From the NCBI GenBank assembly GCA_945280365.1, contig CALYQD010000004.1, forward strand, positions 8,571 through 72,570: a stretch of DNA of 64,000 bases. The letters run 5' to 3'. The notes beneath the pieces were generated by a model. It saw nothing but the letters and a program-made list of their open reading frames with translations. It was not told the DNA's origin and did no database searches. The stretch is from an uncultured Apibacter sp. Its GTDB lineage: Bacteria > Bacteroidota > Bacteroidia > Flavobacteriales > Weeksellaceae. The translations under genes and the position numbers were made by a program. Below, one piece after another: positions 9,310 through 62,949 of this stretch; within the stretch, counting starts at the first letter, position 1; the number at the start of each line of letters is the position of its first letter.

Positions 9310-9388
9310 TACTTAATTATGATTACTTATCATCTTCAAAATTAATAAATAAATCATTTGATAGAATAAAAAGAGTTGTAATTTTGAG

Positions 9389-10075
9389 ATGGATTATAAT
9401 TTTATGCTGAAAAGAACTATTATAAATACGTTAGAAGGAACCAAAACTATACAGATTCCCGAATGGAATGAAACCTATCATTCTCGTCATGGTATTTTGC
9501 AAGAAGCTCAACATGTTTTTATTTCAAATGGATTAGAAAAGGTAAATGTACCTGTGATTTCAATTCTTGAAATGGGATTTGGAACAGGATTAAATGCTTT
9601 ATTAACCTTATATGAGGCTCTAGAAAAAAGCATGAAAATTAGCTATTACACATTAGAGAAATACCCTCTTATTATGGATGAAATCAATCAATTACAATAC
9701 GGTTCCATACTTAATTCAGAAAAAACTGAAGAATATTATAGATTACTTCATGAAGCTGAATGGGGAGTAAATACCCATCTCTGTGAAAATTTTAGTATAA
9801 TTAAATATCAAACAGATTTTAAAAACTTGAAAGACTTACCGATATCAAATATAAATTTGGTTTATTATGATGCATTTGGAGCAAGAGTACAGCCCGAGTT
9901 ATGGGAAGTAAACATATTTAAAAGCATATATGATACGATGACATCGGGAGGGCTTTTAACCACTTATTCCAGTAAAGGAAGTGCTCGTAGAGCAATGCAG
10001 AGTGTTGGTTTTGAGGTTGAAAAGTTAATAGGTCCCAAGGGTAAAAGAGAAATGGTCAATGCATGGAAAAGATAA
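9389..10075 (+). CDS. mnmD: tRNA (5-methylaminomethyl-2-thiouridine) methyltransferase, MnmD/MnmC-methyltransferase-like
   Basis: 228 aa. Motifs ETYHSRHG, ILEMGFGTGLNALLT and YYDAFGARVQPELW match the stand-alone MnmC C-terminal-like methyltransferase of Bacteroidota. Confidence 0.65.
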   Translation: MDYNFMLKRTIINTLEGTKTIQIPEWNETYHSRHGILQEAQHVFISNGLEKVNVPVISILEMGFGTGLNALLTLYEALEKSMKISYYTLEKYPLIMDEINQLQYGSILNSEKTEEYYRLLHEAEWGVNTHLCENFSIIKYQTDFKNLKDLPISNINLVYYDAFGARVQPELWEVNIFKSIYDTMTSGGLLTTYSSKGSARRAMQSVGFEVEKLIGPKGKREMVNAWKR

Positions 10076-18963: not shown

Positions 18964-19003
18964 CCATTGAACTTAAAAATTAGAAAATAAAAATTATAGA
19001 ACA

Positions 19004-44885: not shown

Positions 44886-46198
44886 TATAATTCTTCAATA
44901 TTATCTAATAAGGTTTCCTCATTTGGACGTTCATCTGAAATTTCAATCTCTCCAAATAATTTAGATTTATCCACTTCTGGGTTCTGACGAAGTATATTAA
45001 GGATATTAAGAAAATCTCTAATAACTTCTCTTGGAGTTAAAAATTCAGAAGCTCCAGGTTTATTGAATATTTCTTCCATAAAAGAGTGGATATCATCATT
45101 AGAAATATCTATGAGAGTTTTATAATTAAAATCAAAAATTTCTTTAAGTTTTTTTAATAAAACGAAGATTTCATTATGATCCAAAGGCATTAATCGGATT
45201 ACGGGTTGAGCAAAGTCTCTTATTTCTAAAGTCTCAAACTTATTAGTTTCCAATCTTGATTTTAATGCATGATAGCTGAACAATCCTCTACGCTCATTTT
45301 CCAAAAATTCTTTAGTTCCTGCATAGTTAAAAAATAAATTAGTTACTTTTCCCTGAAAACAATCATTATAAATAGCTAATATTTTTTCATAGTTTTTTTC
45401 TCTCATGACAGCTGTTGAAATTTTGTACAAATTAATAGCTTCATCCAAGTTAATCATAAATCCACTGTATCCCATGCTAACAAATAATTTACAGAAATTT
45501 TTAAGCATATCATAATAATTCTGATCATTAATTATTTCTCGAACCCCTAAATCTTGACGTGCTTCTGTTTTAGTAGTATATTCACCTTTTAACCATTTTA
45601 AAGCATTCCTTCTAAGTTGTTCTTCATCTTGGATGTATCCTTCATAATATTTTATGATCACTGTTCCAAAATCAAAACCTCCTACTTCGGTAATTCCATT
45701 GATGGTTTTCATTATGTTGTTCCGGATTAAATCAATATAATCCTCATTATGTATTTCACTAACTAATATATTATTTTCTTGAGCTGTTTTTATAATGATC
45801 TGCTCAATCCATTTTTCCATTAAAATAGGCAAGGCACCTCCTTCAGGTTTGGTTTGTATGGCTATATTATCCATTATTGACTTGTATAAAGAAACCGCCT
45901 TTCCATCATTAGAATATAAACGATTTTCAGGTGTAAAATCAGCATTAGCTACAACAAATTTTTGTTTTAATGCAACCGTATTTAATAAATGAAGCATAAA
46001 TGATTTTCCAGAACCAAAATCGCCAATCCAAAACTTAACCAAACTATGTCCATTTTTTACATCTTCTAATGCTGAGACAAAAGCTGTTATTTCTTCAGAA
46101 CGTCCTACTGTTATATGTTGTACTCCTATTTTCGGAACTACTCCGCTTACGAGTGAATTAATAATTGCTGTGGCTTCTTTAGGCTTAATATTTATCAT
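44885..46198 (-). CDS. sngB: P-loop ATPase, DUF2791/BrxD-like (Shango SngB-like)
   Basis: 437 aa. Walker A GDFGSGKS, Walker B FMINLDEA. The N-terminal block VPKIGVQHITVGR..E resembles the DUF2791 family. Confidence 0.65.
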   Translation of the reverse strand: MINIKPKEATAIINSLVSGVVPKIGVQHITVGRSEEITAFVSALEDVKNGHSLVKFWIGDFGSGKSFMLHLLNTVALKQKFVVANADFTPENRLYSNDGKAVSLYKSIMDNIAIQTKPEGGALPILMEKWIEQIIIKTAQENNILVSEIHNEDYIDLIRNNIMKTINGITEVGGFDFGTVIIKYYEGYIQDEEQLRRNALKWLKGEYTTKTEARQDLGVREIINDQNYYDMLKNFCKLFVSMGYSGFMINLDEAINLYKISTAVMREKNYEKILAIYNDCFQGKVTNLFFNYAGTKEFLENERRGLFSYHALKSRLETNKFETLEIRDFAQPVIRLMPLDHNEIFVLLKKLKEIFDFNYKTLIDISNDDIHSFMEEIFNKPGASEFLTPREVIRDFLNILNILRQNPEVDKSKLFGEIEISDERPNEETLLDNIEEL

Positions 46199-48231
46199 TT
46201 TATAGTTATTTTTTGGTAGTAATCTTTTAAAATAGTGTAAAATTCATCTTCTTCTTCAATCAATATATCATCCAGAACTTCATAATAAATTTCATTAATA
46301 CTGTCTATCAAATGATTTTTAAAAATATTGTTGTCTTTTGCATAAATATCAAAGTCTTCAAAAGAAACGCACAAACTATTTTTTGCAAAAAAATTTAAAA
46401 CATCTATTTGAATAGAAGATAAATTTTCACCATTTAAATAAATAGACTTATTTGACTCAATTGTTTTTTTGGAAACTATTTTAATTTCATTAGCATTAAT
46501 GTCTTGTGATTTTGTTGATAAACTTTCACTTTCATCTTGTAAATATTCATTTAATAACTCTACAGTTTCTGAATGTTGTTCTTGTACTTCTTTTATGATT
46601 GATTTATTAAGATTAATTTTTTTACGTCTTGCTTTATAAATGGAAGAAACTGAACTTAAAGCCTCATCTAAATTTCTAGTTTTAATTAATTTTTCTACAA
46701 TAATTTCAAAGTCATGAAACTGTTCATTAGTTTTGAAAAGATTTTTTTGTATTGTTTTAGTTAAAGGTTTATTGTTGAAAGTCGAAGATTTTAAATCATA
46801 GTACAAGTAATAAATATATAGTGATAATGCTATTTCTTTATCATACTTAGCTATGAATTTTGATGAATCAAAGAATATATTTTCAATAGAAGGATTATTT
46901 TCATTAAGTTTTCCTAATGAAATAATATCGTTTAAAAACTGCTTTGGATCTCCATTATAATTTTCCGTAATCTTAGAAAATTTTATTTTCCACCGGGTTG
47001 TATTTTGAGTATATAATTTTATATCTGTAGCTTCATCGGGAAGATTGATTATAGATGTTAATTTAAATAAAGTTTGGGTTATGGTAGGAACTATTTTTTC
47101 TTGATATAGATTATTAATTTCAGGCATATGCAGAGAAAAATCAGTATTTAGTTTTCTCTTATGGCCATAAAATTCACGGACAGCATTTTCGCAAAGTTTG
47201 AAAATATTTTGATAAAAATACTTAATTGTATCTTCAAAAGCGTAATTATAATTGTGACTACCTTTTCTGTATTTGTAATACTTTTTTATATAAAGATCTG
47301 CAATTTCTGTAATAAATTGTTCTAAATTTTTTTCTCCTTCAATTTGAGTATCTTGTAAAGTCTCAAATAATGATAAATAAAGTCTGAGTGTTTCAATTAA
47401 ACAAGCTTCTATTTCAGTAAAGGTGTTGGGTGAAAAATATAATTTATTTAATAATTCAACTTCCTTATCATTTAACTTTAGTTTGTTTTTATAGCGGTTT
47501 CCTAAACGCCAGTAATCATACCCATAGTAGTCATAAGGATTGTTTTCAATAATTCTATTTATATTTTCTTCATCGCCTATATTTTCTAATTTTTTAATTA
47601 AAAATGAAATACAGTAAGATTTAGTTCTACTATAATGAAAACCAAGAAGATCCAATTGCTTTTCCAAAACTTGAATGTCCTTGTGTACTTCATATTCATT
47701 TAATAAGTCAAATAACAGAATAAAGGCATAATTCCAATTTCCATATAAATTATTATATTCACCATTGAGGAAATCTGTTTTAAAAGCTTGATAAAATTTT
47801 TTTTGTTCTGGAGTAGCCTCATCTAAATCAGAATAAGAATATATATATTTATGAGGCCAATAGGGAACTCCATATTGATTTATTAATGGTTCATTGTAGG
47901 AAAATAAAACGTGTTTTAAATTATAGTTGTCAGAATTAAAGGTATTTGATTCTGATAAATTAGGACGAAGACTACATGTTTCATTAGAAATATCTTCAAT
48001 AGAATTATTGGATTCGTTCATTATTTTATTTGAAGTGCTATTCTCTTTAATAGTAGAGTTAGAAATAAAATTATTTATAACCTTAATAGACTCCGTATTG
48101 TTATAAGTTGAATCTTTTTCCTGTAGATTTTTTAAGTGATTATTGTAAACATTTTTATTCTTTTGTTTAGATGAATTCTTATTCAAAAAAACAACTAAAA
48201 GTGTTATAAATGTGATAATTAGTAAAATCAT
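46195..48231 (-). CDS. sngA: membrane-anchored TerB-N/TerB-C domain protein (Shango SngA-like)
   Basis: 678 aa. It has an N-terminal TM helix and an Asn/Ser-rich linker. The TerB-N-like motif is VPYWPHKYIYSYSDLDEATPEQKKFYQAF. The TerB-C-like acidic blocks are SETVELLNEYLQDESE and INEIYYEVLDDILIEEEDE. Overlaps sngB by 4 nt (ATGA). Confidence 0.65.
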   Translation of the reverse strand: MILLIITFITLLVVFLNKNSSKQKNKNVYNNHLKNLQEKDSTYNNTESIKVINNFISNSTIKENSTSNKIMNESNNSIEDISNETCSLRPNLSESNTFNSDNYNLKHVLFSYNEPLINQYGVPYWPHKYIYSYSDLDEATPEQKKFYQAFKTDFLNGEYNNLYGNWNYAFILLFDLLNEYEVHKDIQVLEKQLDLLGFHYSRTKSYCISFLIKKLENIGDEENINRIIENNPYDYYGYDYWRLGNRYKNKLKLNDKEVELLNKLYFSPNTFTEIEACLIETLRLYLSLFETLQDTQIEGEKNLEQFITEIADLYIKKYYKYRKGSHNYNYAFEDTIKYFYQNIFKLCENAVREFYGHKRKLNTDFSLHMPEINNLYQEKIVPTITQTLFKLTSIINLPDEATDIKLYTQNTTRWKIKFSKITENYNGDPKQFLNDIISLGKLNENNPSIENIFFDSSKFIAKYDKEIALSLYIYYLYYDLKSSTFNNKPLTKTIQKNLFKTNEQFHDFEIIVEKLIKTRNLDEALSSVSSIYKARRKKINLNKSIIKEVQEQHSETVELLNEYLQDESESLSTKSQDINANEIKIVSKKTIESNKSIYLNGENLSSIQIDVLNFFAKNSLCVSFEDFDIYAKDNNIFKNHLIDSINEIYYEVLDDILIEEEDEFYTILKDYYQKITIK

Positions 48232-50082: not shown

Positions 50083-51390
50083 TTATATGATTTTTTCTAC
50101 ATATTTCCATATATACCCCCCACAGGTTTTACTCCTTCCATGTACAGCATCATTTATACTGCTACGAGATACGCCGGTTGATTTACCTGCTTCAATAACA
50201 GAAGGATAAGTAGCTATATGATTTCCAGAGAGGTCATATTGATAAACTACTTTAATTTTCTTTTTAGGGGGAGTTATTTTTGTTAGCTTATTTCCTTCCA
50301 TCCAAATAAAACCTCTTAAATATTGAGGCTTAGAACTGAGTATTTTTCCTAAGGTCATCTCAGGTATTCCTGTACTTTTGGAAGCTTTTGATATGCTGGG
50401 GTAAACCATTATAAGATTCCCTTCTTTATCAAACTGGCTTACTATTTTAGCGCTAATTGAGGGAGGTACGGGATCTACTTTCTGAGGCTCATAACCTTTT
50501 TTCCAAATCAAGCCACCAGCAGTTTGAGATCTTCCTTGTATACACTGGCGAATACAGCCTCTATTTATTTTAGTTTGCTGCTCAGCTTCCCATATATTAT
50601 TGTATCCGGCTAAATAATTACCCTCTTTATCATAACAACTAAGCGGTTGAGAAGATATGCTTGGTGTTACAGCAATAATTTCGGAAATATCATTTTCATA
50701 TCTCCAAATATAATTTCCTGCATATTTTTGCTTTCCAAGAATACATTTTCTAATAGCCGCTTCGTGAATTCCAGTTTGTTTATAAGCTTCCCTTATGCTT
50801 GGATAAGTGAGTAGGTAGTTACCTTGCAGGTCATATTGCTTAACTTTGATTTTAGTCTTACTTTTTTCCTGTAATTTGTTTCTTCTTTCTTTGGGCCAAA
50901 AATTTCTTATACTCGCAAATATTTCAGGTACATTAGTCCTTCCTTGTTTTGCTGTAATCCGGTTTAATTCTGCACTATCCGCCTTATAAAGGTTTTCTAT
51001 CTTATTATTAAAATTATCCCAATCTTTATGAAGGATTAGATCTTGTTTGGTTATTTTGCTGCAAAAAGCTTCATATACCTTTCTGGAAACATAAAATGAA
51101 TAAGTAATTTTTTCAATGGTTATTTTAGTTATTAAGGAATAAAAATATTTTTTGAGTATTTTATTGTAAAGTGGTTTGGGATATTGTTTTCGAATTCGTT
51201 CGGGGCGTTCATAGGATATTGTTTTTAATCCTCCTTTGGTACCTTGGTAAATAGTTCTTTTTAAATTTTTTATGCGTCCCATATTGGAAATCATCAGATA
51301 ACCTTCAAAATCGGGACAATCTTTCCAGATTTCTCCGGGAATATCTTTGAGTGATAAATTTTGATATGGATATAAAGCAGTTTTTTTCAA
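50083..51390 (-). CDS. homing-endonuclease-like protein: NUMOD4 motif + HNH_3-like domain + four tandem NUMOD1/IENR1-type HTH modules
   Basis: 435 aa with a TTG start in the track. NUMOD4-like GEIWKDCPDFEGYLMISNMGRIKNL. HNH-like LILHKDWDNFNNKIENL. It has four ~60-aa repeats of pattern Q(Y/F)D..GN....YPSI.EA.K.TG.....I...(G/H).......G(Y/F)IW. Confidence 0.7.
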   Translation of the reverse strand: MKKTALYPYQNLSLKDIPGEIWKDCPDFEGYLMISNMGRIKNLKRTIYQGTKGGLKTISYERPERIRKQYPKPLYNKILKKYFYSLITKITIEKITYSFYVSRKVYEAFCSKITKQDLILHKDWDNFNNKIENLYKADSAELNRITAKQGRTNVPEIFASIRNFWPKERRNKLQEKSKTKIKVKQYDLQGNYLLTYPSIREAYKQTGIHEAAIRKCILGKQKYAGNYIWRYENDISEIIAVTPSISSQPLSCYDKEGNYLAGYNNIWEAEQQTKINRGCIRQCIQGRSQTAGGLIWKKGYEPQKVDPVPPSISAKIVSQFDKEGNLIMVYPSISKASKSTGIPEMTLGKILSSKPQYLRGFIWMEGNKLTKITPPKKKIKVVYQYDLSGNHIATYPSVIEAGKSTGVSRSSINDAVHGRSKTCGGYIWKYVEKII

Positions 51391-51612: not shown

Positions 51613-53502
51613 ATGGAAAAAATAGATAAATCTGAAGTTCCTTTTACCTTTTCTAGTCCAGATGTAGTAAAAGAGAAAATTGCAAACAAATTCAATCGAT
51701 ACGGAAAAACCTCAATCACTTATGTTAGTGTTAAGATTGCCGGAGAGGATTATTTTACTGAAACCAACATTGCTAAATTAGAGATTAAACAAAAAGTAGG
51801 AGATCATCATAGTTTTGAGATTTGGTGTGATCCGGGAGAATTTAATGAAGATAATGCTTATTTATTTGAAAACTCCAGAGCTCATTTAGGTAAGCGGATT
51901 ACTTTCCAATTTCACAGGTTTGGAACTGTACAATCAATTTTTACAGGATTGATCACCCAAGTATCCACTCAAAAGCAAGACGGAGTAAAAAAAGTTATTT
52001 TGCGTGGCAATTCTCCCTCTATACTTATGGAAAACGGATTACATACAAGAAGTTTTGAAAATAAAACTTTGGAAGAGATTATAAAAGAGGTAGCTTATCC
52101 ATATGCAAAGAATTTAATTGACTTTAAAATCAATCCGAATTTTAAAGAAAAAATTCCTTATATCGTTCAATATAATGAGAGTGATTATCAATTCATAAAG
52201 CGATTAGCCTCTCGTTTTGGAGAGTATTATTATTATAACGGAGAACAACTGGTTTTTTCTGCTTGGGGAGGGAAAATAACAGAATTAGCTGAAGAGGAAG
52301 ATATTTTTAATTTCGAATTAAAAATGGAAGTGCACCCTCAGAAATTTTCTTATACAGCGTATGATGCTAAACAATCATCTGATTATAAGGTAGATTCAGA
52401 AAGTCAGAGGCTACAACAATCAGAGAATCCTTTTCAGCAATATGCCATTAATGCATCAGAAGGACTTTTTAATGTTTCTCCCACCGCTCATTTTGATAAA
52501 AGCTTATTGATAAATCAGCAGTTAGATATTGAAAGGGCTGTTCTTGCAGAAAAACGTAAAAGACAAAATTTAGTTTATATAGAGGCAACTACTAATGAAC
52601 CTAGCTTACGCCTAGGCGATATAGGTAAAGTTTCAGCCTGGATACCTAAACATAAAATTTTTAAATCCGGAAAAATTCCGATTGAAAGTTATAAGATAAA
52701 TGAAATTACTCATTGTTTTATTGAGGGAAAAGGATATACTAATACATTTATAGGAGTACCTAAAGATTTAATAACACCTCCGGATTATGACGGAAGCAAT
52801 ACCCCGGTAGCAGATATTCAACATGCAATTGTAACAGACAATAAAGATCCAAAAAAGATGGGACGTGTACGTCTTCAGTTTGTCTGGCAAAAGGCTGAAA
52901 ACAGCCAGACACCTTGGGTACAAGTAATACAACCTCATGCAGGTAGAGATAAAGGAACATATATTAATCCGGAAATAGGAGAAACTGTATTGGTAGCTTT
53001 TCAGGGAGGAAATGCAGAAGCTCCTATTGTATTGGGAACGGCTTATAATGGAGGAGAGATAGCTGCTTATTACACTGAAGGAAATGATATTAAGGTAATA
53101 CAAACAAGAAGTGGTGCCAAAATTATTTTCAATGATGCTGAAGGACAAGGCTCTATTCTAATTGAAGACCCAAGCGGTAACCGTATCTTCTTGGATGGAA
53201 AAGGCAATATTAGGACAGAAGTACCGGAGACTTTCTTTTTAGATGCTAAAAATGTAGTGGTTACGGCTTCCCAGAATATAAGTATGAGTGCAGGGGAAAA
53301 TATTTCTATTATGGCAGCAGAAGACTATAATCTGGCAGCAAGCAATATATATGAAAGTGCCGGAGAAGGTAGAGTATCTAATGCTAATGATTTTATAGAA
53401 ATTTCTAAAAAAAGTACTTATACAAGTAATGAAGATAAAATAAACTTGGAAAGTGCTTTGGAAGTTAAATCCAATAGTGCACAACAAACCAGTTTACATT
53501 AA
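51613..53502 (+). CDS. vgrG: type VI secretion spike protein VgrG (gp27-like + gp5 OB-fold + short beta-helix)
   Basis: 629 aa. It has a phage late-control-D/gp27-like region (QYNESDYQFIKRLASRFGEYYYY) and a gp5 OB-fold block (AIVTDNKDPKKMGRVRLQFVWQ...GETVLVAFQGGNAEAPIVLG). C-terminal repetitive beta-strand segments follow. Confidence 0.9.
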   Translation: MEKIDKSEVPFTFSSPDVVKEKIANKFNRYGKTSITYVSVKIAGEDYFTETNIAKLEIKQKVGDHHSFEIWCDPGEFNEDNAYLFENSRAHLGKRITFQFHRFGTVQSIFTGLITQVSTQKQDGVKKVILRGNSPSILMENGLHTRSFENKTLEEIIKEVAYPYAKNLIDFKINPNFKEKIPYIVQYNESDYQFIKRLASRFGEYYYYNGEQLVFSAWGGKITELAEEEDIFNFELKMEVHPQKFSYTAYDAKQSSDYKVDSESQRLQQSENPFQQYAINASEGLFNVSPTAHFDKSLLINQQLDIERAVLAEKRKRQNLVYIEATTNEPSLRLGDIGKVSAWIPKHKIFKSGKIPIESYKINEITHCFIEGKGYTNTFIGVPKDLITPPDYDGSNTPVADIQHAIVTDNKDPKKMGRVRLQFVWQKAENSQTPWVQVIQPHAGRDKGTYINPEIGETVLVAFQGGNAEAPIVLGTAYNGGEIAAYYTEGNDIKVIQTRSGAKIIFNDAEGQGSILIEDPSGNRIFLDGKGNIRTEVPETFFLDAKNVVVTASQNISMSAGENISIMAAEDYNLAASNIYESAGEGRVSNANDFIEISKKSTYTSNEDKINLESALEVKSNSAQQTSLH

Positions 53503-53513
53503 ACTATAGTAAT

Positions 53514-54776
53514 ATGGGAGTTATAGAAGGCGGAAAAATAATACGAACTATAGGAGGGGAAAGTATAAAAATTGCAAAAAAGTCCATTACTTTAACTGCT
53601 ACAGAGGGTAATCTTACTTTTAATGCAGCTACTAAAGTAGAAATGGTGGGCAAACAAAATGGAGTAAAATATCTAAATGATTATAAACCTCCAGAGGAAA
53701 TACCTACTACTTTAAGAGTTACTAAAGTTATAGGGCCTGATATTATTAAAGGCGGAGGTGTCTATGATTATCAAGCAGTAGAATTTAATAGAAAAAATTT
53801 TTCATTAGTAGAGCTGAACAAGCTTATATGGAATGTAAAATATGATGATTCCGCAGAATTTTTAGGATTTGAAGATGAAAAAAATAAAAATTCATATATT
53901 ATTTCAGATAAGAAGATTGGAGTAAAAAGAATTCATATTTTATCTGAAAATGTAATAGGAAAGAAAAAAATCAAAATATATCCCTTTTTTAATTCTCCTT
54001 CAGAAAATGTTTGTGTTATATCTCATTTGGAACTTCCATCAGGAGTTTTTGTCTGGGCAGAGACCAAGGGTACTGGGCATGTATTTCTAACTGTTCATAA
54101 GGAGAATAACATATATTTATATACTTATGGAAGATATGATGATGCTTATATGATTTCGCTAGGCACCATGGGGGAAGGAGTTTTAATCAGATATACTAAC
54201 AAGTTAGCCATAGAATACATGAAAAAAGAATTATATAGGCTTGATTGCAAAGTATATCAGATTAAAGATGTTAAAGAGGATGATTTGATTGAGATATTTG
54301 ATAAGATATGGAATAGTTCAACAGAAAAACCAGACAATAAATCAACATCAGATTCAGTGAAAGAATATGGTAGGGTTATAGATGATTATGATTTAACTGG
54401 TAATAATTGTACTACTAAAACATGTGATGCCTTGAAGAAAGCAGGAACAAATATTTTTAATTTTGATGTCTATTTATTCAATAAAAAAATGTATTCCTAT
54501 AAAGAATATTTTACTATTCCCAGCTCACTGAATGATTTCCTAAACGAACAAAAGGAAACTAATTCCGATATTGTAGTTTCTACAGAGATCATGAAATCAA
54601 CTTATGAAAATATACAATCTATAGAAACATTAGATAAAACAGGATCTTCGGGTGAAACTTCAGGAAGTTCAGGGGATGCATCAGGAAGTTCAGCAAATTC
54701 TTCCAACAGTGAAACGATCAGCAGCGGATCAAGCCCTGCCTCAAGTGGAGGAATTTATGGTTCATCTTCCAATTAA
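53514..54776 (+). CDS. putative T6SS effector: VgrG-tip-like N-terminal strands, permuted papain-fold (His-before-Cys) hydrolase-like domain, Ser/Gly-rich tail
   Basis: 420 aa, starting 11 nt after vgrG. The N-terminus ESIKIAKKSITLTATEGNLTFNAATKVEMVG continues the VgrG C-terminal repeat style. TGHVFLTVHKENNIYLYTYGRY plus YDLTGNNCTTKTCDALKKAG resemble the PPPDE/LRAT-type H...NC motifs. The tail is SSGETSGSSGDASGSS... Confidence 0.4.
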   Translation: MGVIEGGKIIRTIGGESIKIAKKSITLTATEGNLTFNAATKVEMVGKQNGVKYLNDYKPPEEIPTTLRVTKVIGPDIIKGGGVYDYQAVEFNRKNFSLVELNKLIWNVKYDDSAEFLGFEDEKNKNSYIISDKKIGVKRIHILSENVIGKKKIKIYPFFNSPSENVCVISHLELPSGVFVWAETKGTGHVFLTVHKENNIYLYTYGRYDDAYMISLGTMGEGVLIRYTNKLAIEYMKKELYRLDCKVYQIKDVKEDDLIEIFDKIWNSSTEKPDNKSTSDSVKEYGRVIDDYDLTGNNCTTKTCDALKKAGTNIFNFDVYLFNKKMYSYKEYFTIPSSLNDFLNEQKETNSDIVVSTEIMKSTYENIQSIETLDKTGSSGETSGSSGDASGSSANSSNSETISSGSSPASSGGIYGSSSN

Positions 54777-54788
54777 ACAATTATTAAT

Positions 54789-55025
54789 ATGAAAAAAAAT
54801 AATTTTATGAAAATAATATTAGGACTTTTTTTTGTAATTGTAGTTATAGTAGAAATAGCACTGATTTTAAATGCATTTCTCACAGTAAAATATCAAATAG
54901 AAGAAGCTGAAAACATGACTCAGGTATTAAATAAAATATATAGTATTCTAAATAATGGAGTATATATAATTATTTTTGACTTGATTTATTTATTAGTCCT
55001 TCATATTCTCTATTTTAAAAAGTAA
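54789..55025 (+). CDS. small two-TM membrane protein (immunity candidate)
   Basis: 78 aa with two hydrophobic helices, immediately downstream of the putative effector. Confidence 0.4.
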   Translation: MKKNNFMKIILGLFFVIVVIVEIALILNAFLTVKYQIEEAENMTQVLNKIYSILNNGVYIIIFDLIYLLVLHILYFKK

Positions 55026-55027
55026 CA

Positions 55028-55642
55028 GTGCAAAATAAGAGTTGGGAACATACCCGTATATATAAAACAGAGCATAACTTAGAAGTAAAGGAACGCTCAC
55101 AAACCAAACAAAGCAGAGTTTCTTTTGACATGGGAATCAATTGCAATACTAAGGATGAAAGCATACGTAAAGTATTCACCCGGGAAAATTACCTGATTAA
55201 TTCTAAAATACCTAAAGAACATCATATCCGTTTGTTATATGAATTGGAACAAGCAGTTTACCCATTGGAAATAGAAGTAAATACGTATGAAAATTTTGAA
55301 AGAATCCCGGGCCATGGCCTGTGGTTTTCTACCTGGCAAAAAAAAGCAGATGCAATTTTACAGGAGAAATACAGTCGTGAGTTTGTCGAAAGCCTGAAAA
55401 ACCAGGTACAGGGAAATTTGGAGACCGAAGAAAAACTTAAACAAAAAATACAGGAAAAAGCCTTCTGGAAATTATACTTTTTTGGGATGCAAAATGCTCA
55501 GAATGATAATACCTTACGTTGGAATATCTTAAAAGTTGGTACCCTTTATTTTACAGGACATGTACAGACAAAAATTGAAGAAAATAAATGGGTATCTGTT
55601 TATCGGGAGAATCAGGTAAAACCGGAAGAAAGTTTAGCTCAG
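55028..55642 (+). repeat. dispersed direct repeat, copy 1 (paralogous 5' ~615 bp shared with 56483-57097)
   Basis: Long identical nucleotide runs, for example ATTAATTCTAAAATACCTAAAGAACATCATATCCGTTTGTTATATGAATTGGAACA in both copies. Confidence 0.85.
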
Positions 55643-55948
55643 AAATTAGCGGATCATTTAAATGCCATAGTTTATGCATTTTTAAGACGAAGTAATTATA
55701 CATCTACCTGGCTTGACGGTGGCGACCAATCATACACTAAAAATTACATAACCATTGAAGATGAAGATATAAGCAATCCGCTAAATCCCATGGATTGGTA
55801 TAGAAAGTTAAACAGAAAAGGATGGGACCAAGCTTTGTGGAATACTTCCGGGGCATATATGGCGCCAACAAGCGGCAAAACACCAGGGGGCCTTCTTGAA
55901 GAAGGTATGTTTATTTTTGAAAAGGGCAAAAAAGCAAGAAAAAAATAA
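55028..55948 (+). CDS. unknown-family protein, paralogue A (conserved N-terminal ~205 aa, unique C-terminal ~100 aa)
   Basis: 306 aa. The GTG start is supported by alignment to the paralogue B start (MQNKSWEH.RIYK vs MQIKPWDN.RIYK). The two are colinear up to ...KPEES and then unrelated. Confidence 0.6.
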   Translation: MQNKSWEHTRIYKTEHNLEVKERSQTKQSRVSFDMGINCNTKDESIRKVFTRENYLINSKIPKEHHIRLLYELEQAVYPLEIEVNTYENFERIPGHGLWFSTWQKKADAILQEKYSREFVESLKNQVQGNLETEEKLKQKIQEKAFWKLYFFGMQNAQNDNTLRWNILKVGTLYFTGHVQTKIEENKWVSVYRENQVKPEESLAQKLADHLNAIVYAFLRRSNYTSTWLDGGDQSYTKNYITIEDEDISNPLNPMDWYRKLNRKGWDQALWNTSGAYMAPTSGKTPGGLLEEGMFIFEKGKKARKK

Positions 55949-55954
55949 AATAAT

Positions 55955-56362
55955 ATGAAATACTGTAAATCACTAATTTTTGCTTTTATTATATATGTTT
56001 TAGCAAGTTTTGCGACTTATTTTTCCATGCATGTATATTCAACTGATATTTCATCATCATGTTTTGAATGCTCATATAAGAAAGATATTTTTTTGTCTTC
56101 CATTCATATAAGTGTAATTTTTCTTTTATTGATTCTACTAAAAAATATCTTGAAAAAAAAATGGAGTATTTCAATATTCTTCACGATTATATTTGCAATA
56201 CTTGTTTTCTTTAACAACTATAATATTTTTGTAGATAGGGTTTCATCGTGGAGTAGTTACACCTTTACCGAAGAACTTCTAAGTGTCCTGTCAAATTCTT
56301 ATTTGTACTTGGGGATCAGCACTATATTAGTATTTGTTTTATTAAAGTTATTTAAATTTTAA
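55955..56362 (+). CDS. polytopic small membrane protein (immunity candidate for paralogue A)
   Basis: 135 aa with about 4 predicted TM helices. It starts 6 nt after paralogue A. Confidence 0.45.
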   Translation: MKYCKSLIFAFIIYVLASFATYFSMHVYSTDISSSCFECSYKKDIFLSSIHISVIFLLLILLKNILKKKWSISIFFTIIFAILVFFNNYNIFVDRVSSWSSYTFTEELLSVLSNSYLYLGISTILVFVLLKLFKF

Positions 56363-56482
56363 AATAAAATCCTTTTAACAAGTACACAGCCTATAATCGG
56401 TTTAAGTTTAATAAAATTCATTGATAAAAAAAAATAATCAATGGTTATAATAATTTAGATACAGAAAACTAAGACGGAAATA

Positions 56483-57097
56483 ATGCAAATTAAACCTTGG
56501 GATAATATCCGTATATATAAAGTAGAACATACTTTGAAAGTAAAAGAAGGCCTACAGGTTAAGGAGAGTAGGATAACTTTTGACATGGGAATCAGTTGCA
56601 ATATAAAGAATGGTAGCATACGAAAGTTATTTACCCGAGAGAACTGCCTGATTAATTCTAAAATACCTAAAGAACATCATATCCGTTTGTTATATGAATT
56701 GGAACAGGCTATTTATCCGCTGGAAATAGAGGTAAACCGGTATGGGAATTATGAAAAAATACCAGGTTATGCTTTATGGTTTTCCAACTGGCAAAATAAA
56801 GCAGAAAAAATATTGAAAGAGAACTACCGAGGAGAATTTGCCGAAAGCTTGAAAAACCAGTTACAGGAAAATTTGGAGACCGAAGAAAAACTCAAACAAA
56901 AAATACAGGAAGAAGCCTTCTGGAGATTGTACTTTTTTGGGATGCAAAATGCCCAGAATGATAAGACCTTGCGTTGGAACGTCTTAAAAGCAGGTACTCT
57001 TTATTTTACGGGAGATGTACAGACAAGCATTGAAGAAAATAAACTGATATCTGTTTACGGGGGAAAATCGGAGAAACCGGAAGAAAGTTTCACTGAA
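56483..57097 (+). repeat. dispersed direct repeat, copy 2
   Basis: See copy 1. Confidence 0.85.
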
Positions 57098-57352
57098 AAC
57101 CTTAACATCCTCTTACGAAAGAAAAAAAATTCTAAACATTACCTAATGCCGGGTAATATAGAGTCAAGCTGTATGGTAAAATCCGTTTGGGAGAAAGACA
57201 TCGGAAAACTGCTTTATAAGGCATCAGAAATTGAAGTAAATTCAGAAGATAAAAACTATCTTTATTCAGAAAAAATAGAGATGAAATATCAAGGAATAAG
57301 TATAAGAAAAGAAACTAACCCTAAATCTTTTATTGTTTCAAGAAACAAATAA
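56483..57352 (+). CDS. unknown-family protein, paralogue B (same N-terminal domain, different C-terminus)
   Basis: 289 aa. See paralogue A. The C-terminal ~85 aa are unrelated to A. Confidence 0.6.
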   Translation: MQIKPWDNIRIYKVEHTLKVKEGLQVKESRITFDMGISCNIKNGSIRKLFTRENCLINSKIPKEHHIRLLYELEQAIYPLEIEVNRYGNYEKIPGYALWFSNWQNKAEKILKENYRGEFAESLKNQLQENLETEEKLKQKIQEEAFWRLYFFGMQNAQNDKTLRWNVLKAGTLYFTGDVQTSIEENKLISVYGGKSEKPEESFTENLNILLRKKKNSKHYLMPGNIESSCMVKSVWEKDIGKLLYKASEIEVNSEDKNYLYSEKIEMKYQGISIRKETNPKSFIVSRNK

Positions 57353-57379: not shown

Positions 57380-60300
57380 ATGGCAGAAACGACAAAAAAG
57401 CGAGTAGTAGTAGTAGAAGGAGCCCGTTTAAACTGTTCATTGGGATCATTGCCGACGGTATCCCTTAAGGTAAAACACAAAGATGATGATAAATATTACA
57501 TTAATGAAAAAAAGATAGCGACTTGGCTGGAAGATAATAAAGATCATATGGATTTTGGTGTATGTAACAGAAGTAGCTCAAAACCGAAATGTACCCCAAA
57601 TATCAGCTGGAGTGATTATTATGAGAATGCGGAGTTTGGAAAAAAGAAAATTCTTATAGACCAGTCAAAAGGAACATGTAAAATAGGGGGAGGTACCGTG
57701 ATTATAAAAGAACACGGACAAAGCGCCCAACCTTCTTCCCGTATATATAAAAAAAATAAGAAGGATTCCTATGAAATCTATATGCTCAGTCCTAAGGTAG
57801 CAGCCTCTAATGGAAAAAAACTACCTTCAGTAAGTAAAATAGACTTGGTTGTTTCCCCGGCACAACGTATTTCATCCAACCGGGAAGTATCGTTTGAAAT
57901 AGGAGGTAGTATTAAAAGCATCAAGTTAGTAGCCACTGTAGGAGCAAAAGATGATAAAAGCCTGGTAAGCTGGGCGTTTTATAAAGGTGATAATCAAAAA
58001 AACAGGTTCAAGACCTATCTGGAATACGGAAGTGAACTTATTGAGAATCTGGAGGCCCTTCCTGAGGGTAAAACTACTATTTTCGGATATGGCGAAACAC
58101 CCGAGGGAAATTCTACCAAGATAATTATCAACCGGAAACATAATAAGCTTGAGGGCATTTCAATGAAGTTGTTGAACGTAAAGCTGGAATCTGTGGGCAA
58201 GGCTCCTAAGAATACCCAGATAGTTTTTAGTCCTAAATATACCTTTGCGAATTCTCCCAAATTATCCTTGAATCAGGTCGGTTGGCAGCAAAAGACTAAA
58301 TGGAATATCAAAGACGAGAAAGGGAACATTTTGTATACCACTGCTCCCGGTTTTTCCGCCAACCGTAACCAGGGAGTAATATCTACTTCCTACTCAAACA
58401 ATTATTTAACCGCTATATTTAAGAACAACGGTAATTACCAGATAGAGCTAGAGGATTTTTCACGGACATCGTTGGGAATGTTGCCAGATATAAAGACCCT
58501 TTCGCTTCGAATAGTAAACCGTTCGGCCAGAACAATTATAAATAAGGGTTTGCCAAAAATACGTAAAGAAGATTCCATTCATTTGTTGGCCTCCGGGATT
58601 GAATTTGATTATGGAATAAATCAACTCGGCAATCGAGCATTCTGGCATATACAAAAAGACAGTGGAAAAACGATTAGTTTAGGGCTTCGTGCAGAAGTAA
58701 AGATGAACGTTCCCGAGCTTATAGAAGAATTCAGGAAAAAACAGGTAATAATATCGAACCCTTATGGGGAATATAAATTTCGGATTGATGGGGAAGAAAA
58801 GGATGTTATTTCGATAGGCACCAGTTCGGATACAGCGGTAATAGAGGTAGCGAAAAACCGTATGGAAAGTATCAGCGGTCCTGATAAAATACCTGTAGGA
58901 GCAGTGGTTACATATAAAACAAAAGTCTTAATGTCTTTGGTGGGCTCGGAGCATATCCGGTGGATACAGCCTGCTGCCCCTTTTATAAAGTTTAACCTTT
59001 CTTCAGATCATAAACAAGCCACCTTACAGCTTAATAAACCGGGGAAAGCCTATTTTTCTGCCTACCTTGAAGGAGAGGATGCAAGTACCAAAGAGGTGAA
59101 GAAAACCGTAGAGGCAACATATATTTACCTGGAAAAAGCCCTGTGGTGTTATGCAAATGGTAAACGAAGGGCTGAAACCGGATGGGAAGAAGAAAATTAT
59201 ATTCATGTCTCACTAGAAGGCCTCAGCAGTATCCCGGTAAAACTTAAAGTATGGGTAAAGCACCCCGATGAGGGAAAGGTTGGAAGTTTGTCTTACGAAA
59301 ATTGTCTGTTAAAAGAAATAGATTCCTCCCTGAACGGTAACGGAAGCCTTCAAACATCTTTTATAGTAGATAAGGAACTCAAAGAGAAACTACAAAAAAT
59401 ATATCCAGAAGAATCGCCCCAAGCCAAGTTGTTTTTTACGCTGGAATTTACAGCAGGGGGAATACTGGATTTATCAAAAGTGAGGCTGATTGATAAAGGA
59501 AGCTCCGAAGAAATACCCTTTGTGGAAAAACAAGGGAAAAACCTATACTTTGTATTAGATGCAGATGAGGATTTAAAAATCCCTGCAAGGCCACGCATTA
59601 CGGCTATCAACTTTTCAAATGAAGCAGGCGACGATATACAGGTGGGAGTTACCCAATATGGTAAAAAACACACCATTTGGGTAAATACTGTAGGAATGAC
59701 TAAGGAAAAGCTGGTGGTTATAGTTTATAAAAAGTTGTTGAAGGATGACATGATAGAAACGTACAACAATAAAGATAAAGCATTTGCAGTTACCGCGCAG
59801 GTAAAGAAATATGAAGAGCAGGAAGTGGGAACGGATGGTTTGTTGGAACTGGACTTTATCCCTGAGAAAAAAGATGGAGAGGGCGATCCTCAATTGTTTT
59901 ACATTTCCGTATTTAAAAAACAAAAGAATGAAAAGGACGAAACCATACTGGTAGAGGAAGGTTCCCAGCTTAAATCATTAGATAGTTTACCTTTTGACAA
60001 GGAACTGAATGAATATGCCTCACAGGTAGGAATTGCAATGCCTACCTTGGAAGAAGGCCAAAGCCCGACAGCTGAACAGCTAAATGATATTGTATCTAAG
60101 TTTTTTCATTTTTATAATCCGCTGTATGTGTCTGAAACAGGGACTATTGAGGATCAGCAGGTTATTTCTCCGGTTCTAGTCGAAAGAGGTAATAGTAATA
60201 AGAAAGGAGAATGCCCAAGATGCAAAGAAGATTTTACAGTAGATATATTAAAGAAGGTATATAAATCTGCCACGACCAAAGATTTAGAAGAACTGGCAGT

Positions 60301-61693
60301 AGCGTTAAACAAGTATAAAGAAATATTTAAACTAGATACCTGTGCTCGCAAGGCACATTTCTTTGCACAATCGCGTCAGGAAGCAGGATTATCTCTAACA
60401 TCAGGACTAAGAGGAGAAAGTTTTAATTATATAGTATCAGGATTATCCGGAGCAGGATTAAAAGCTTTTGAACAAGTCCCAGGAGGTAAAGATATAGCTA
60501 ATAAGCATGCAAGGAAAAATAGAAGTGATCCGGCAGTATCAGAATCCAGTCAAATAATCTTAGCCAATTGGGCATATGGATACCATTATTCAACAGGAAA
60601 GAATTTTAAAAATCGTGGAGCGAATGATGGTTGGAACTTTAGAGGGCGGGGCTTATTCCAGATAACAGGAAGAAGTACATATGAAAAAGTACAGAAAATA
60701 ATAGAAGCTTATGCAAAAGATTCAGGTATTAATATTTACAAGAAGTATGATAGCCCCGATAAAGCTATTAGCGTAAAAGACGGTTGGATGACCCCCGAAG
60801 AAGCAGCTTTAACCGGGATGATAGACTGGTTTAAAGATGGCATGTACCTAAAAGCAGATGAAACAGGAAAAATATCTGATGATGAAGTGGTGAATTCAAT
60901 TATAAAGATTATCAATGAAAAAACATCATCTTATCCTGAAAGGAGAGTATGGTATAGAGGAGGAAAAGCAGGGGATTTAACAGTTAGCGAATCAAATTCA
61001 ACTAAGTCAATTTTCAGGGTAGCAGAATGCGGGAAAGTAGATGAACCTTTGAAATATGAAAACTCAGATTTAAAGATACAAGAGGGCATAAAATGGTTAT
61101 TAAGCAAATGTATAGACCAAACAGAAGTAAACAAAAAGCCATATAAAGTAACTTATAAAAACGACGATGATAGAATTTCGGAGAAAGGAGAAAATACGAT
61201 GGATTGTTCGGAATTAGTATGCCGTTATTTACAGAAAATAGAATGGAGTAAAAAGGTAATGGGAGGTAATACTCGAATACTCTATGAATTTGCAGAAAAA
61301 TACCCTATCTACTTACAAAAACATGACGATTTAGATTATAAGCCTCAAATAGGAGATATATTTATCTGGAAGAGTTCTTCAGGAATGGGGCATACCGGAG
61401 TGATCATTGACTATGAAGAAATACCCAATAAAGACAATGAAATAGAAGGAGTTGTAACCACTGTGGAAGCAATAAGTTCAAGTGAAATTCCTTATGGGAT
61501 GGAAAAAAAATTGACAATGGGAGGGGTGATTAAATTAAAATGGAAAAAGGATTCATACCATTTATTGGATCATAAAGTAACTGCCCAAAGAAGTCCCTGC
61601 CGATTTTATACACCGTTAATACATTACAGTAAAGCAGATAAAAAGGTAAATTGGAATAAAAATAATTATAGTTTTGAAATAATAAAGAAATGA
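57380..61693 (+). CDS. large polymorphic T6SS effector: PAAR-like DUF4280 N-terminus, ~800-aa uncharacterised middle, GH19/COG3179-like glycoside hydrolase + NlpC/P60 peptidase C-terminus
   Basis: 1437 aa. DUF4280-like VVVVEGARLNCSLGSLPTVSLKV...FGVCN...GTCKIGGGTVIIKEHGQ. GH19-like AHFFAQSRQEAG and FRGRGLFQITGRSTYEKV. NlpC/P60-like MDCSELVCRYL ... GMGHTGVII. Confidence 0.75.
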   Translation: MAETTKKRVVVVEGARLNCSLGSLPTVSLKVKHKDDDKYYINEKKIATWLEDNKDHMDFGVCNRSSSKPKCTPNISWSDYYENAEFGKKKILIDQSKGTCKIGGGTVIIKEHGQSAQPSSRIYKKNKKDSYEIYMLSPKVAASNGKKLPSVSKIDLVVSPAQRISSNREVSFEIGGSIKSIKLVATVGAKDDKSLVSWAFYKGDNQKNRFKTYLEYGSELIENLEALPEGKTTIFGYGETPEGNSTKIIINRKHNKLEGISMKLLNVKLESVGKAPKNTQIVFSPKYTFANSPKLSLNQVGWQQKTKWNIKDEKGNILYTTAPGFSANRNQGVISTSYSNNYLTAIFKNNGNYQIELEDFSRTSLGMLPDIKTLSLRIVNRSARTIINKGLPKIRKEDSIHLLASGIEFDYGINQLGNRAFWHIQKDSGKTISLGLRAEVKMNVPELIEEFRKKQVIISNPYGEYKFRIDGEEKDVISIGTSSDTAVIEVAKNRMESISGPDKIPVGAVVTYKTKVLMSLVGSEHIRWIQPAAPFIKFNLSSDHKQATLQLNKPGKAYFSAYLEGEDASTKEVKKTVEATYIYLEKALWCYANGKRRAETGWEEENYIHVSLEGLSSIPVKLKVWVKHPDEGKVGSLSYENCLLKEIDSSLNGNGSLQTSFIVDKELKEKLQKIYPEESPQAKLFFTLEFTAGGILDLSKVRLIDKGSSEEIPFVEKQGKNLYFVLDADEDLKIPARPRITAINFSNEAGDDIQVGVTQYGKKHTIWVNTVGMTKEKLVVIVYKKLLKDDMIETYNNKDKAFAVTAQVKKYEEQEVGTDGLLELDFIPEKKDGEGDPQLFYISVFKKQKNEKDETILVEEGSQLKSLDSLPFDKELNEYASQVGIAMPTLEEGQSPTAEQLNDIVSKFFHFYNPLYVSETGTIEDQQVISPVLVERGNSNKKGECPRCKEDFTVDILKKVYKSATTKDLEELAVALNKYKEIFKLDTCARKAHFFAQSRQEAGLSLTSGLRGESFNYIVSGLSGAGLKAFEQVPGGKDIANKHARKNRSDPAVSESSQIILANWAYGYHYSTGKNFKNRGANDGWNFRGRGLFQITGRSTYEKVQKIIEAYAKDSGINIYKKYDSPDKAISVKDGWMTPEEAALTGMIDWFKDGMYLKADETGKISDDEVVNSIIKIINEKTSSYPERRVWYRGGKAGDLTVSESNSTKSIFRVAECGKVDEPLKYENSDLKIQEGIKWLLSKCIDQTEVNKKPYKVTYKNDDDRISEKGENTMDCSELVCRYLQKIEWSKKVMGGNTRILYEFAEKYPIYLQKHDDLDYKPQIGDIFIWKSSSGMGHTGVIIDYEEIPNKDNEIEGVVTTVEAISSSEIPYGMEKKLTMGGVIKLKWKKDSYHLLDHKVTAQRSPCRFYTPLIHYSKADKKVNWNKNNYSFEIIKK

Positions 61694-62949
61694 TTATGAA
61701 AAAAAGAATAATATTTTTCAGTTTATTCATATTATTTTTTTCCTGTAGAGGAGAAGAAAATAAGAAAGAAGAAAAAAAAGAAAAGCCTATTATAGAAATT
61801 GCACAAAATACACAAATGGATAACATTGGTTTACAAAATACGCAAAAGGATAGCATTAATTTACAAAAAATAGAAGAACATATAGAACTACAAAAAAGAG
61901 TATTTGTAGAAGACCATATTCCTGACAATGAATATATAGCCACACAAGAGGATTTAGATTTACAACTACTTTTATTAGAAAAATCATTAGAGAATAGCGG
62001 TTATAAATTCCCGGATTATTCCTTATTTAAAGAGAGGATAAAGTATGTATTTGGAATAGATATAGACAAAAGTGAAGAAAATATTGTTACATTATATGCA
62101 GAAGAACCAGTCTATGACAAGGGAAAAGCATATACGGATGAAGAAATAAAACATATACTATTAAAAGAAACGAATCTAACTTTTGATCAATTTAAATATA
62201 GTTTTTCAAGTTATGATTGGAATTTATTTATAGATAAACAAAGGAAAATAATAACTCCTATGGTATTTCTGAATGATTTAATAAAAATTAAGGGGAAAGA
62301 TAAAAAAGAGTATAGTATACAACAAAATTTAAAAGTATTATCCTTAAATAAATATTTAATATATAATGACAAAGCTAGTTTAAATTATTTATTACCTAGA
62401 GAAGCATATTTATCAAGGTCATTATTATTAAATTTTAATTATGATAAGGAAGATAAAATTAATGAAAATGTAATGGATAGTTTATACACTTCCTATAACC
62501 ATAATGAACCTGTAAGAGAATCAGAATTTAGATCATTGATTTTTGTAATGAAAGATGAGCCCGGTCAAGACCGAAGCCGTTTATACCTAAGAGAAGGAAT
62601 ATTAAAAACCATTGAAAATATAACTAATGAAAATGAGGGTAAATATGCTATAACAATAAAACATGCGGTTGCAAGCATAGTAGTAAAAAAAAGAGATGGT
62701 AAAAATATAGGCTGGACAAATGAAGAACTATACAAAATAGTAGCTTATTCTGCTAATTATATAGATCCATTGTATTGGAAGTATCATAAATCAGAAACAG
62801 TAGTATGGGGAAATGGCGATATATTAGGGGTCTATGATTCTTTATTACCAGAAAAAGAATGGGAAGCAATGTTAAAACAATTTAAGGAAAATAATTATTA
62901 TAATTTACCTAATTTAAAAGGCTTAGTAAAAGAAATAATGAATTGGTAG
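61690..62949 (+). CDS. lipoprotein, immunity candidate for the cell-wall hydrolase effector
   Basis: 419 aa with an ATGA overlap with the effector stop. The second M gives MKKRIIFFSLFILFFSC (lipobox). I recognise no family. Confidence 0.5.
   Translation: MIMKKRIIFFSLFILFFSCRGEENKKEEKKEKPIIEIAQNTQMDNIGLQNTQKDSINLQKIEEHIELQKRVFVEDHIPDNEYIATQEDLDLQLLLLEKSLENSGYKFPDYSLFKERIKYVFGIDIDKSEENIVTLYAEEPVYDKGKAYTDEEIKHILLKETNLTFDQFKYSFSSYDWNLFIDKQRKIITPMVFLNDLIKIKGKDKKEYSIQQNLKVLSLNKYLIYNDKASLNYLLPREAYLSRSLLLNFNYDKEDKINENVMDSLYTSYNHNEPVRESEFRSLIFVMKDEPGQDRSRLYLREGILKTIENITNENEGKYAITIKHAVASIVVKKRDGKNIGWTNEELYKIVAYSANYIDPLYWKYHKSETVVWGNGDILGVYDSLLPEKEWEAMLKQFKENNYYNLPNLKGLVKEIMNW
61804..61863 (+). repeat. 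in-frame tandem repeat, 2 x 30 bp, inside the lipoprotein gene
   Basis: CAAAATACACAAATGGATAACATTGGTTTA / CAAAATACGCAAAAGGATAGCATTAATTTA, encoding QNTQMDNIGL / QNTQKDSINL. Confidence 0.8.

Follow-up and report, generated by a model that had tools for sequence, protein, structure and literature searches.

In Bacteroides fragilis, an adaptor protein is needed for the interaction between a type VI secretion system (T6SS) effector and a PAAR-like protein, as well as for secretion, and it has been described as effector-specific (PMC13402684). The adaptor Ate3 is an open beta-barrel of 11 strands, and the orthologues Ate3/Afe3/Afe5/Ate5 are encoded beside DUF4280 genes in Bacteroidota (PMC13402684). 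In Vibrio cholerae, T6SS effector genes are displaced sequentially while the old immunity genes are retained (Kirchberger et al. 2017, PMC5361080), which has been ascribed to homology-facilitated illegitimate recombination and to protection from kin with the old effector (PMC5361080). Here, we analyzed a stretch of 64,000 nucleotides from an uncultured Apibacter sp. (contig CALYQD010000004.1, positions 8,571 to 72,570; the whole stretch is called the window below), in which two similar open reading frames (ORFs), A and B, lie in an Apibacter-type T6SS(iii) vgrG satellite cluster. It is highly probable that ORF B is an adaptor related to BtapC and Ate3 and that ORF A is a recombination chimera, to which a short gene-conversion patch was added.

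Both ORFs had been picked out in a sequence-only reading of the window as paralogues with a common N-terminal domain of about 205 amino acids (aa) and unrelated C-termini. All factual statements of that reading were confirmed, and its interpretation is partly supported. BLASTP aligned the colinear ORFs without gaps over residues 1-207 (151/207 identities, 73%, E 5e-112), stopping at ...KPEES, past which nothing significant was found. Their DNA is 80% identical over a length of 621 nucleotides (nt). The longest identical stretch has 60 nt (A nt 165-224), in line with the more than 50 nt that had been noted, and the next ones have 24 and 23 nt. The setting between VgrG and a PAAR-like effector was also correctly described, with VgrG encoded upstream (51613..53502) and a DUF4280 protein of 1437 aa starting after a gap of 27 nt past B. 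Likewise, the reported protein with four transmembrane segments (4-TM) is present 6 nt after A, as a 135-aa ORF (55955..56362) with four hydrophobic segments. As single proteins, neither A nor B gave a match in Pfam (E <= 0.1), in NCBIfam or, by phmmer, in the PDB, which agrees with the remark that the N-terminal domain is not a recognizable MIX, FIX, DUF4123, DUF1795 or DUF2169 domain.

Close relatives were searched for among 5.8 billion proteins with A as query, and a profile search added one more member, P0041. The close family comprises only seven clusters in these 5.8 billion proteins. One set of matches to A consisted of proteins of 288-303 aa, namely P0002, P0003, P0004 (Apibacter sp. 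HY039), P0006 and P0007. These and P0041 align to B from end to end, including the C-terminal ~85 aa, and A alone deviates. Because six full-length members match the whole length of B, B is the canonical form of a small family with a conserved C-terminus. In the second set, which comprised about 35 proteins of Chryseobacterium, Flavobacterium and relatives with a length of ~445 aa, the match was limited to the last ~110 residues of A. Residues 197-306 of A are 100% identical to residues 338-447 of one such protein, P0005 (447 aa), and the tail of A is thus the C-terminal end of another protein. ORF A is a fusion in origin.

The AlphaFold2 (AF2) model of B contains 11 beta-strands and a helical insert (best model: predicted local distance difference test score (pLDDT) 79, predicted template modelling score (pTM) 0.72), and the C-terminus of B supplies strands 9-11 of what is modelled as a single 11-strand barrel. 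When the model was compared with the PDB using Foldseek, chain A of entry 9jg8 ranked first (E 6.5e-10, TM-score 0.76 normalized to the target), followed by lipid-transfer beta-barrels (MTP, ApoB, lipovitellin) and LmcA. This chain is named ‘Bacteroides T6SS Adapter Protein C’ (BtapC), and the supposition that the family would match no known adaptor was thereby overturned. The primary paper on BtapC (PDB 9jg8 chain A) is reportedly that of Li et al. in Cell Host Microbe in 2025; the role of the protein is taken here from the title of the PDB entry and from PMC13402684.

An exhaustive hidden Markov model (HMM) search of 1.84 billion representatives returned 97 relatives at E <= 1e-3. A profile of 42 members (A3), which combines the family of B with distant relatives, matched 9jg8_A with an E of 3.4e-24; the match covers profile positions 8-159, and positions 220-287 form a second, weak stretch. 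For a narrow profile of 5 sequences (A2), 9jg8_A was the sole match in the PDB (E 0.003). Across the 42 family members, none of the Pfam models covers the family, and no DUF4123/Tap-1, DUF1795/Eag or DUF2169 match was obtained either. A DUF4280 gene lies immediately downstream of the adaptor gene in the window and at loci L002, L006, L008, L013, L014, L017 and L018, the exception being L007; the T6SS linkage that the sequence-only reading had proposed to check through the neighborhoods of homologues was accordingly found in 8 of 9 loci. For two distant members, P0043 and P0053, the next gene downstream is likewise a DUF4280 gene, and an effector gene and a gene of ~130 aa precede them. The VgrG of the window is in turn homologous to the B. 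fragilis VgrG in PDB 9jg8 (E 3e-53). Based on the fold, the profile matches, the DUF4280 synteny and the VgrG homology, ORF B is an adaptor of the BtapC/Ate3 family. The idea of a new cargo-loading domain or a new adaptor family was therefore right as to the adaptor and wrong as to its novelty, since the BtapC/Ate3 family was described in 2025-2026. By analogy with B. fragilis, B would link a cargo effector to the PAAR-like protein at the tip of VgrG.

At two of the loci, L017 (2-481) and L018 (1-309), the upstream effector ends in a DUF3289 domain (E 1e-17 and 1e-15, respectively) and is followed by a gene of ~131-133 aa. The order effector, immunity gene, adaptor, DUF4280 effector holds there with a different toxin.

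B and BtapC share homology that is detectable at the profile level, an 11-strand barrel and a position beside a DUF4280 PAAR-like gene in a T6SS(iii) vgrG cluster of Bacteroidota, and the solved BtapC complex contains a homologue of the window's VgrG. In contrast, the two proteins are only ~12% identical in structural alignment, B has 289 aa and BtapC 254 aa, and B, which is known from sequence and model, belongs to Apibacter (Weeksellaceae, bee gut) and not to gut Bacteroidales. The PAAR-like domain is here fused into a 1437-aa cell-wall hydrolase effector. Orthology to the B. fragilis cargo is unsupported, as phmmer searches of the PDB with the 420-aa effector encoded upstream of A and with the DUF4280 effector did not match the BtaeB and BtpeA chains.

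The features of the vgrG-proximal part of the cluster are as follows; L001 is a 4.1-kb metagenome contig with VgrG, P0005, the 135-aa gene and a B-type gene.

51613..53502, plus strand: VgrG spike protein (Phage_GPD and Phage_base_V domains, TIGR01646)
53350..55614, plus strand: imported segment of ~2.3 kb (blastn and sliding identity against L001)
53514..54776, plus strand: current VgrG-linked cargo effector, 420 aa (tblastn, homologues of the C-terminal half)
54789..55025, plus strand: 78-aa protein with two transmembrane segments, putative immunity gene of the 420-aa effector (position, hydrophobic sequence)
55028..55948, plus strand: ORF A (306 aa, GTG start)
55028..55615, plus strand: ORF A codons 1-196, 5' two-thirds of a second, A-type adaptor allele (73% amino-acid identity to B)
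55192..55251, plus strand: 60-nt stretch identical to B, gene-conversion patch (A nt 165-224)
55616..55948, plus strand: ORF A codons 197-306, 3' remnant of the displaced 447-aa P0005-type effector (100% amino-acid identity)
55619..55635, plus strand: 17-nt microhomology AAACCGGAAGAAAGTTT (KPEES) at the right junction, also present in B and in the P0005 gene
55955..56362, plus strand: 135-aa 4-TM protein, predicted orphan immunity gene of the P0005-type effector (synteny)
56483..57352, plus strand: ORF B (289 aa, ATG start), full-length adaptor of the BtapC/Ate3 family (model, Foldseek, profiles, synteny)

Comparison with L001 by blastn revealed two shared blocks, in which L001 1-1774 corresponds to window 51911-53693 and L001 2611-4122 to window 55615-57128 at 99.5% identity. 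Each sequence also has a part that the other lacks: window 53694-55614 is not matched by L001, nor is L001 1775-2610, which is the middle of P0005, matched by the window. Sliding identity along the left block is ~99% up to ~53350 and then falls abruptly to 65-70%, in a zone that spans the last ~50 vgrG codons and the first ~60 codons of the downstream effector; the profile places the left breakpoint at ~53340-53370. On the right side, the identity between A and the P0005 gene begins at 55615, 4 nt upstream of the 17-mer AAACCGGAAGAAAGTTT, which A, B (57074-57090) and the L001 copy of the P0005 gene all contain in one and the same reading frame (2 observed in the window and 0 expected by chance). 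From the blastn blocks and the drop in identity on the left, it follows that the window carries an import of ~2.3 kb (~53350-55614), consisting of the C-terminal tail of VgrG, the 420-aa effector, the 78-aa gene and 196 adaptor codons. This import replaces the resident vgrG end and the 5' three-quarters of the resident P0005-type effector gene. The overall similarity of A and B is that of two diverged alleles of one gene family joined by horizontal import, and not that of a recent duplication; of the duplication or gene conversion that had been suggested, only the conversion applies, and only to the 60-nt patch.

The normal gene order of these clusters is VgrG, cargo effector, immunity gene, adaptor, DUF4280 (PAAR-like) effector, immunity gene. 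It recurs intact, as VgrG, ~450-aa effector, ~135-aa gene, adaptor, DUF4280 effector and ~416-aa gene, in L002-L005 and L008, and also in L006 (Apibacter sp. HY039), L013 (A. adventoris) and L014 (A. muscae). When related loci were searched for with the A2 profile, only two Apibacter genomes were found. Four other metagenome contigs, L009-L012, have the same chimeric order as the window.

We propose that the resident 447-aa effector was displaced by foreign DNA that carried a VgrG tail, the 420-aa effector together with its 78-aa immunity gene, and the first part of an adaptor gene. The left crossover would have been homologous, inside vgrG at ~53350. The right join would have been illegitimate, made where a donor adaptor gene and the resident effector gene, in its 3' part, have the 17-nt in-frame microhomology; of this join, the resident side alone is seen. 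The product of such an event would be a new effector, a new immunity gene, a fusion of adaptor codons 1-196 with codons 338-447 of the old effector, the old 4-TM gene and the resident adaptor B. According to the sequential-displacement model, the old immunity gene that was kept would protect the recombinant from siblings still firing the old effector.

This corresponds to the displacement known from V. cholerae, where most of an old effector gives way to a new effector-immunity module and the old 3' end and immunity gene are pushed downstream and kept, with one end homologous and the other illegitimate, and a sister strain keeps the old arrangement. L001 is a sister allele in which the ancestral effector-immunity pair is still intact at this site; in the window, the 3' remnant of the old effector (100% at the amino-acid level) and its immunity gene (98.5%) are kept downstream of the new pair, and one homologous junction is combined with one illegitimate, microhomology junction, the donor side of which is presumed. 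C-terminal displacement at Rhs and contact-dependent inhibition (CDI) loci is comparable. Different from V. cholerae, the incoming DNA ends inside the adaptor gene and not in the effector gene, and the scar is therefore an in-frame adaptor-effector fusion that resembles a paralogue of the resident adaptor. The window also differs in that its two breakpoints can be placed within ~20-30 nt and in that the locus is a T6SS(iii) satellite locus of Bacteroidota.

The 135-aa gene directly follows an intact P0005-type effector in L001 (98.5% identity), L002-L005 (66%) and L008 (71%). Judged by this synteny, it is the predicted immunity gene of that effector and would be orphaned in the window; the 4-TM protein had indeed been proposed as a possible immunity protein, and this part stands, but its partner is the displaced P0005-type effector and not ORF A. 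The 78-aa gene is 100% conserved along with the 420-aa effector in L009-L012, and a 48%-identical homologue of it is present in an immunity array of A. muscae (L014). The VgrG-proximal effectors (the 420-aa protein, P0005 and those of L002, L008, L013 and L014) have a common N-terminal part of ~160-175 aa that is 41-63% identical, and aa 1-172 of the 420-aa effector are 41-47% identical to the effectors of L001, L002, L008, L013 and L014 (tblastn). With their shared N-terminus and differing C-terminal toxin domains, it is these effectors that appear to be the real polymorphic toxins of the locus. The C-terminal toxin half of the 420-aa effector is widespread and occurs as a fusion with PAAR (PF05488) in Enterobacter and Vibrio and with Rhs in Bacteroidia. 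For P0005, the AF2 model was moderate (pLDDT 69) and its Foldseek matches were generic alpha/beta proteins with weak caspase matches; in Pfam, Peptidase_C25 and DUF4347 appeared at a sub-threshold level only.

The A copies of L009-L012 differ from A of the window at 16 nt, of which 11 are clustered in nt 177-222. At all 11 clustered sites the window carries the base of B, and the state in L009 (...SRIPEDHH...) resembles the A-like adaptor P0003. Because every one of these sites matches B, the 60-nt identical run is a later, short B-to-A gene-conversion patch in the lineage of the window.

The N-terminal part of A is 76% identical to P0003 of L002 and 73% to B. It keeps the predicted strands 1-8 and the helical insert, and the family alignment ends at residue ~202. 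The barrel is incomplete, as helix 201-210 and strands 9-11 (B residues 226-273) are replaced by unrelated sequence. The alpha/beta domain of P0005 occupies ~180-361 in its model. The tail of A begins within this domain and keeps only its last helix and strand, plus a low-confidence extension. It lies downstream of the invariant P0005 motifs H268-G-L-P and A311-C-R-T-G-N (C312) and thus lacks the His268/Cys312 core. The start codon is GTG in 5/5 A copies, and ATG at the homologous codon in 9/9 intact adaptor genes. Outside the patch, all 5 differences between the A copies of the window and L009 are nonsynonymous and include the invariant A145 and F146, although these counts are small; the synonymous and nonsynonymous counts are too small for a dN/dS ratio. 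Because barrel strands 9-11 are missing, the effector piece has no His/Cys core and the gene starts with GTG, ORF A is most likely a non-functional scar.

Other explanations of the two ORFs were weighed against these data. The sequence-only reading had favored polymorphic T6SS toxins, in which A and B would have a trafficking domain of ~205 aa followed by different toxin tails, with the 4-TM protein as the immunity protein of A. A common N-terminus with unrelated C-termini inside a vgrG cluster, and a membrane protein encoded 6 nt past A, would fit such an arrangement. But the C-termini do not vary among homologues that share the N-terminal domain: the B-type C-terminus is found in 6/7 family members, A being the only exception, and in model and profile the N- and C-terminal parts of B form one barrel homologous to the adaptor BtapC. 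The tail of A is not a complete toxin domain but a 110-aa cut from inside the P0005 alpha/beta domain (P0005 338-447) without the invariant His and Cys, the 4-TM gene follows an intact P0005-type effector elsewhere, and no immunity gene follows B. The conserved tails, the adaptor barrel, the P0005 fragment and the synteny of the 4-TM gene contradict the polymorphic-toxin reading, which is very improbable and was rejected. A two-step origin in the genome itself is somewhat less remote but still improbable. It would consist of a tandem duplication by unequal crossing-over at the KPEES 17-mers of resident B and the effector gene, followed by homologous replacement of the upstream copy, the right crossover of which fell inside the adaptor-derived part. 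The 17-mer is present in both resident B and the effector gene of the ancestral-type L001, so that an unequal exchange in frame would be possible. This route predicts a 3' segment identical to B, however, and A and B instead differ up to the junction (21-25 identities per 30 nt, A nt 541-600); nor was the intermediate (effector, immunity gene, chimera, immunity gene, B) seen among the loci examined. The two-step scenario is less parsimonious than the import.

A further possibility is that A functions as a chimeric or truncated adaptor, with its N-terminal 196 aa selected to load the 420-aa effector and the tail merely tolerated. Chimeric adaptors are known by citation: Unterweger et al. reportedly described chimeric Tap-1 (DUF4123) adaptors of Vibrio cholerae in EMBO J in 2015, and a functional A would be their analogue in Bacteroidota. 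We consider a functional A unlikely. The effector specificity described for the B. fragilis adaptor, which is required for the effector-PAAR-like interaction (PMC13402684), would speak for a working A, as would the uninterrupted ORF directly after the new effector-immunity pair and an N-terminal lineage that differs from B and so came with the cassette. Against this, A has lost helix 201-210 and strands 9-11, its tail is a demonstrable piece of another gene and not an adaptor tail, it starts with GTG where the family has ATG, and its allelic differences outside the patch are all nonsynonymous and touch invariant residues. The N-terminal ~175 aa are moreover common to the new and the old effector (41-47%), so that B could plausibly serve the new one. 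The likeness to chimeric Tap-1 concerns the adaptor gene as a recombination site in module exchange and the shared N-terminus with different C-termini. The fold families are unrelated, however (A and B have no DUF4123 match), and the variable C-terminus of Tap-1 is a genuine effector-binding part, whereas that of A is an effector-gene fragment. Slightly less likely again is the fuller version, in which A is a working hybrid loading the 420-aa effector, specificity modules travel with the cassettes and the KPEES 17-mer is a recurrent splice point. If A were such a hybrid, the adaptor specificity modules of Bacteroidota T6SS(iii) would move with effector cassettes.

Some points weigh against our own account of B as an adaptor and A as the scar of an import. 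Only 1/5 AF2 models of B was confident (pLDDT 79 vs 51-55), from an alignment of 5 sequences, and in L007 no DUF4280 gene comes after the gene of the family member P0041. The adaptor role of B would follow from homology and synteny. A search via homologues of the 420-aa effector turned up no donor in which this effector and the 78-aa gene are accompanied by a full-length A-type adaptor; the two closest full-length homologues lie on contigs (4.0 and 2.1 kb) too short to reach an adaptor gene. The one-step scenario is read from its product, and the donor side of the join would have to be as proposed. Finally, ORF A has no frameshift or stop codon in 5/5 copies, which come from ~97.6% identical strains and carry little weight either way.

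With these results, a candidate new trafficking domain or new toxin family is removed from the list, and the BtapC/Ate3 adaptor family, which has no Pfam model, is extended to Apibacter, a genus of bee-gut Flavobacteriales. The gene order effector, immunity gene, adaptor, DUF4280 effector is valid in distant relatives as well. The event is a clean example of a known process and not a new toxin family, and the adaptor family was already known (2025-2026). It is also a well-resolved natural case of effector-cassette displacement in a Bacteroidota T6SS, with breakpoints within ~20-30 nt, a pre-event allele, a conversion patch and an orphan immunity gene. For annotation, the lesson is that ORFs in which the 5' part of an adaptor gene is fused to the 3' stub of an effector gene can mimic paralogues with variable tails.

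Downstream of B, the cluster contains two further genes.

57380..61693, plus strand: PAAR-like (DUF4280) effector, 1437 aa (Pfam, PDB endolysin matches)
61690..62949, plus strand: putative immunity partner of the DUF4280 effector, 419 aa (lipoprotein-like N-terminus)

The PAAR-like effector has a Pfam DUF4280 domain at aa 11-114 (E 8.6e-14) and Amidase_5 and CHAP matches at aa 1256-1348, and PDB endolysin matches indicate a lysozyme-like region at aa 991-1102. The start of the 419-aa gene, the product of which has the N-terminus MIMKKRIIFFSLFILFFSC, overlaps the stop of the effector gene, and a gene at this position is kept in L002, L006, L008 and L013. The effector is modular: between the window and L002 (5655-9857), residues 1-1004 are 66% identical and the C-terminal part matches weakly (33%, aa 1259-1368). 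In a comparison of the window with L009, identity is 97% for the effector and just 74% for the 419-aa gene. The GC content reaches 0.396 at window 58001-60000, inside the effector gene, compared with ~0.29-0.33 in the neighborhood.

Upstream of vgrG, a 435-aa protein with repeated NUMOD1/NUMOD4 modules (homing-endonuclease-type DNA-binding) is encoded on the minus strand (50083-51390), and past it, also on the minus strand, a 678-aa TerB_C-domain protein (46195-48231); both assignments are precomputed Pfam labels on the identical genes of L009.

Several related loci showed further rearrangements. In L007 (275-1141), what is left of an effector N-terminus, a short piece covering aa 33-75 (56%), comes before P0041 (288 aa), and housekeeping genes (GPDH, glycerol kinase, MutS) come after it in place of a DUF4280 gene; the locus may be a decayed or orphan adaptor locus. 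The P0005-type effector of L008 (321-1648) is split into two overlapping ORFs (234 and 217 aa) next to an intact immunity homologue, which may reflect a frameshifted pseudogene or an assembly error. In A. muscae G8 (L014 7459-8090), homologues of the 78-aa (48%) and 135-aa (50%) proteins are encoded side by side between effector and adaptor, and a stretch of ~1 kb (8985-9991) contains no ORF of at least 100 aa. The A. adventoris wkB301 locus contains, downstream from its main DUF4280 effector and the associated immunity-like genes, an orphan fragment (L013 17718-18527) with 60% identity to aa 1177-1434 of the 1437-aa effector of the window, and a homologue of the 419-aa gene (41%) comes next, at 18556-19680. 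The orphan fragment indicates that C-terminal displacement also affects the PAAR-like effector in Apibacter.

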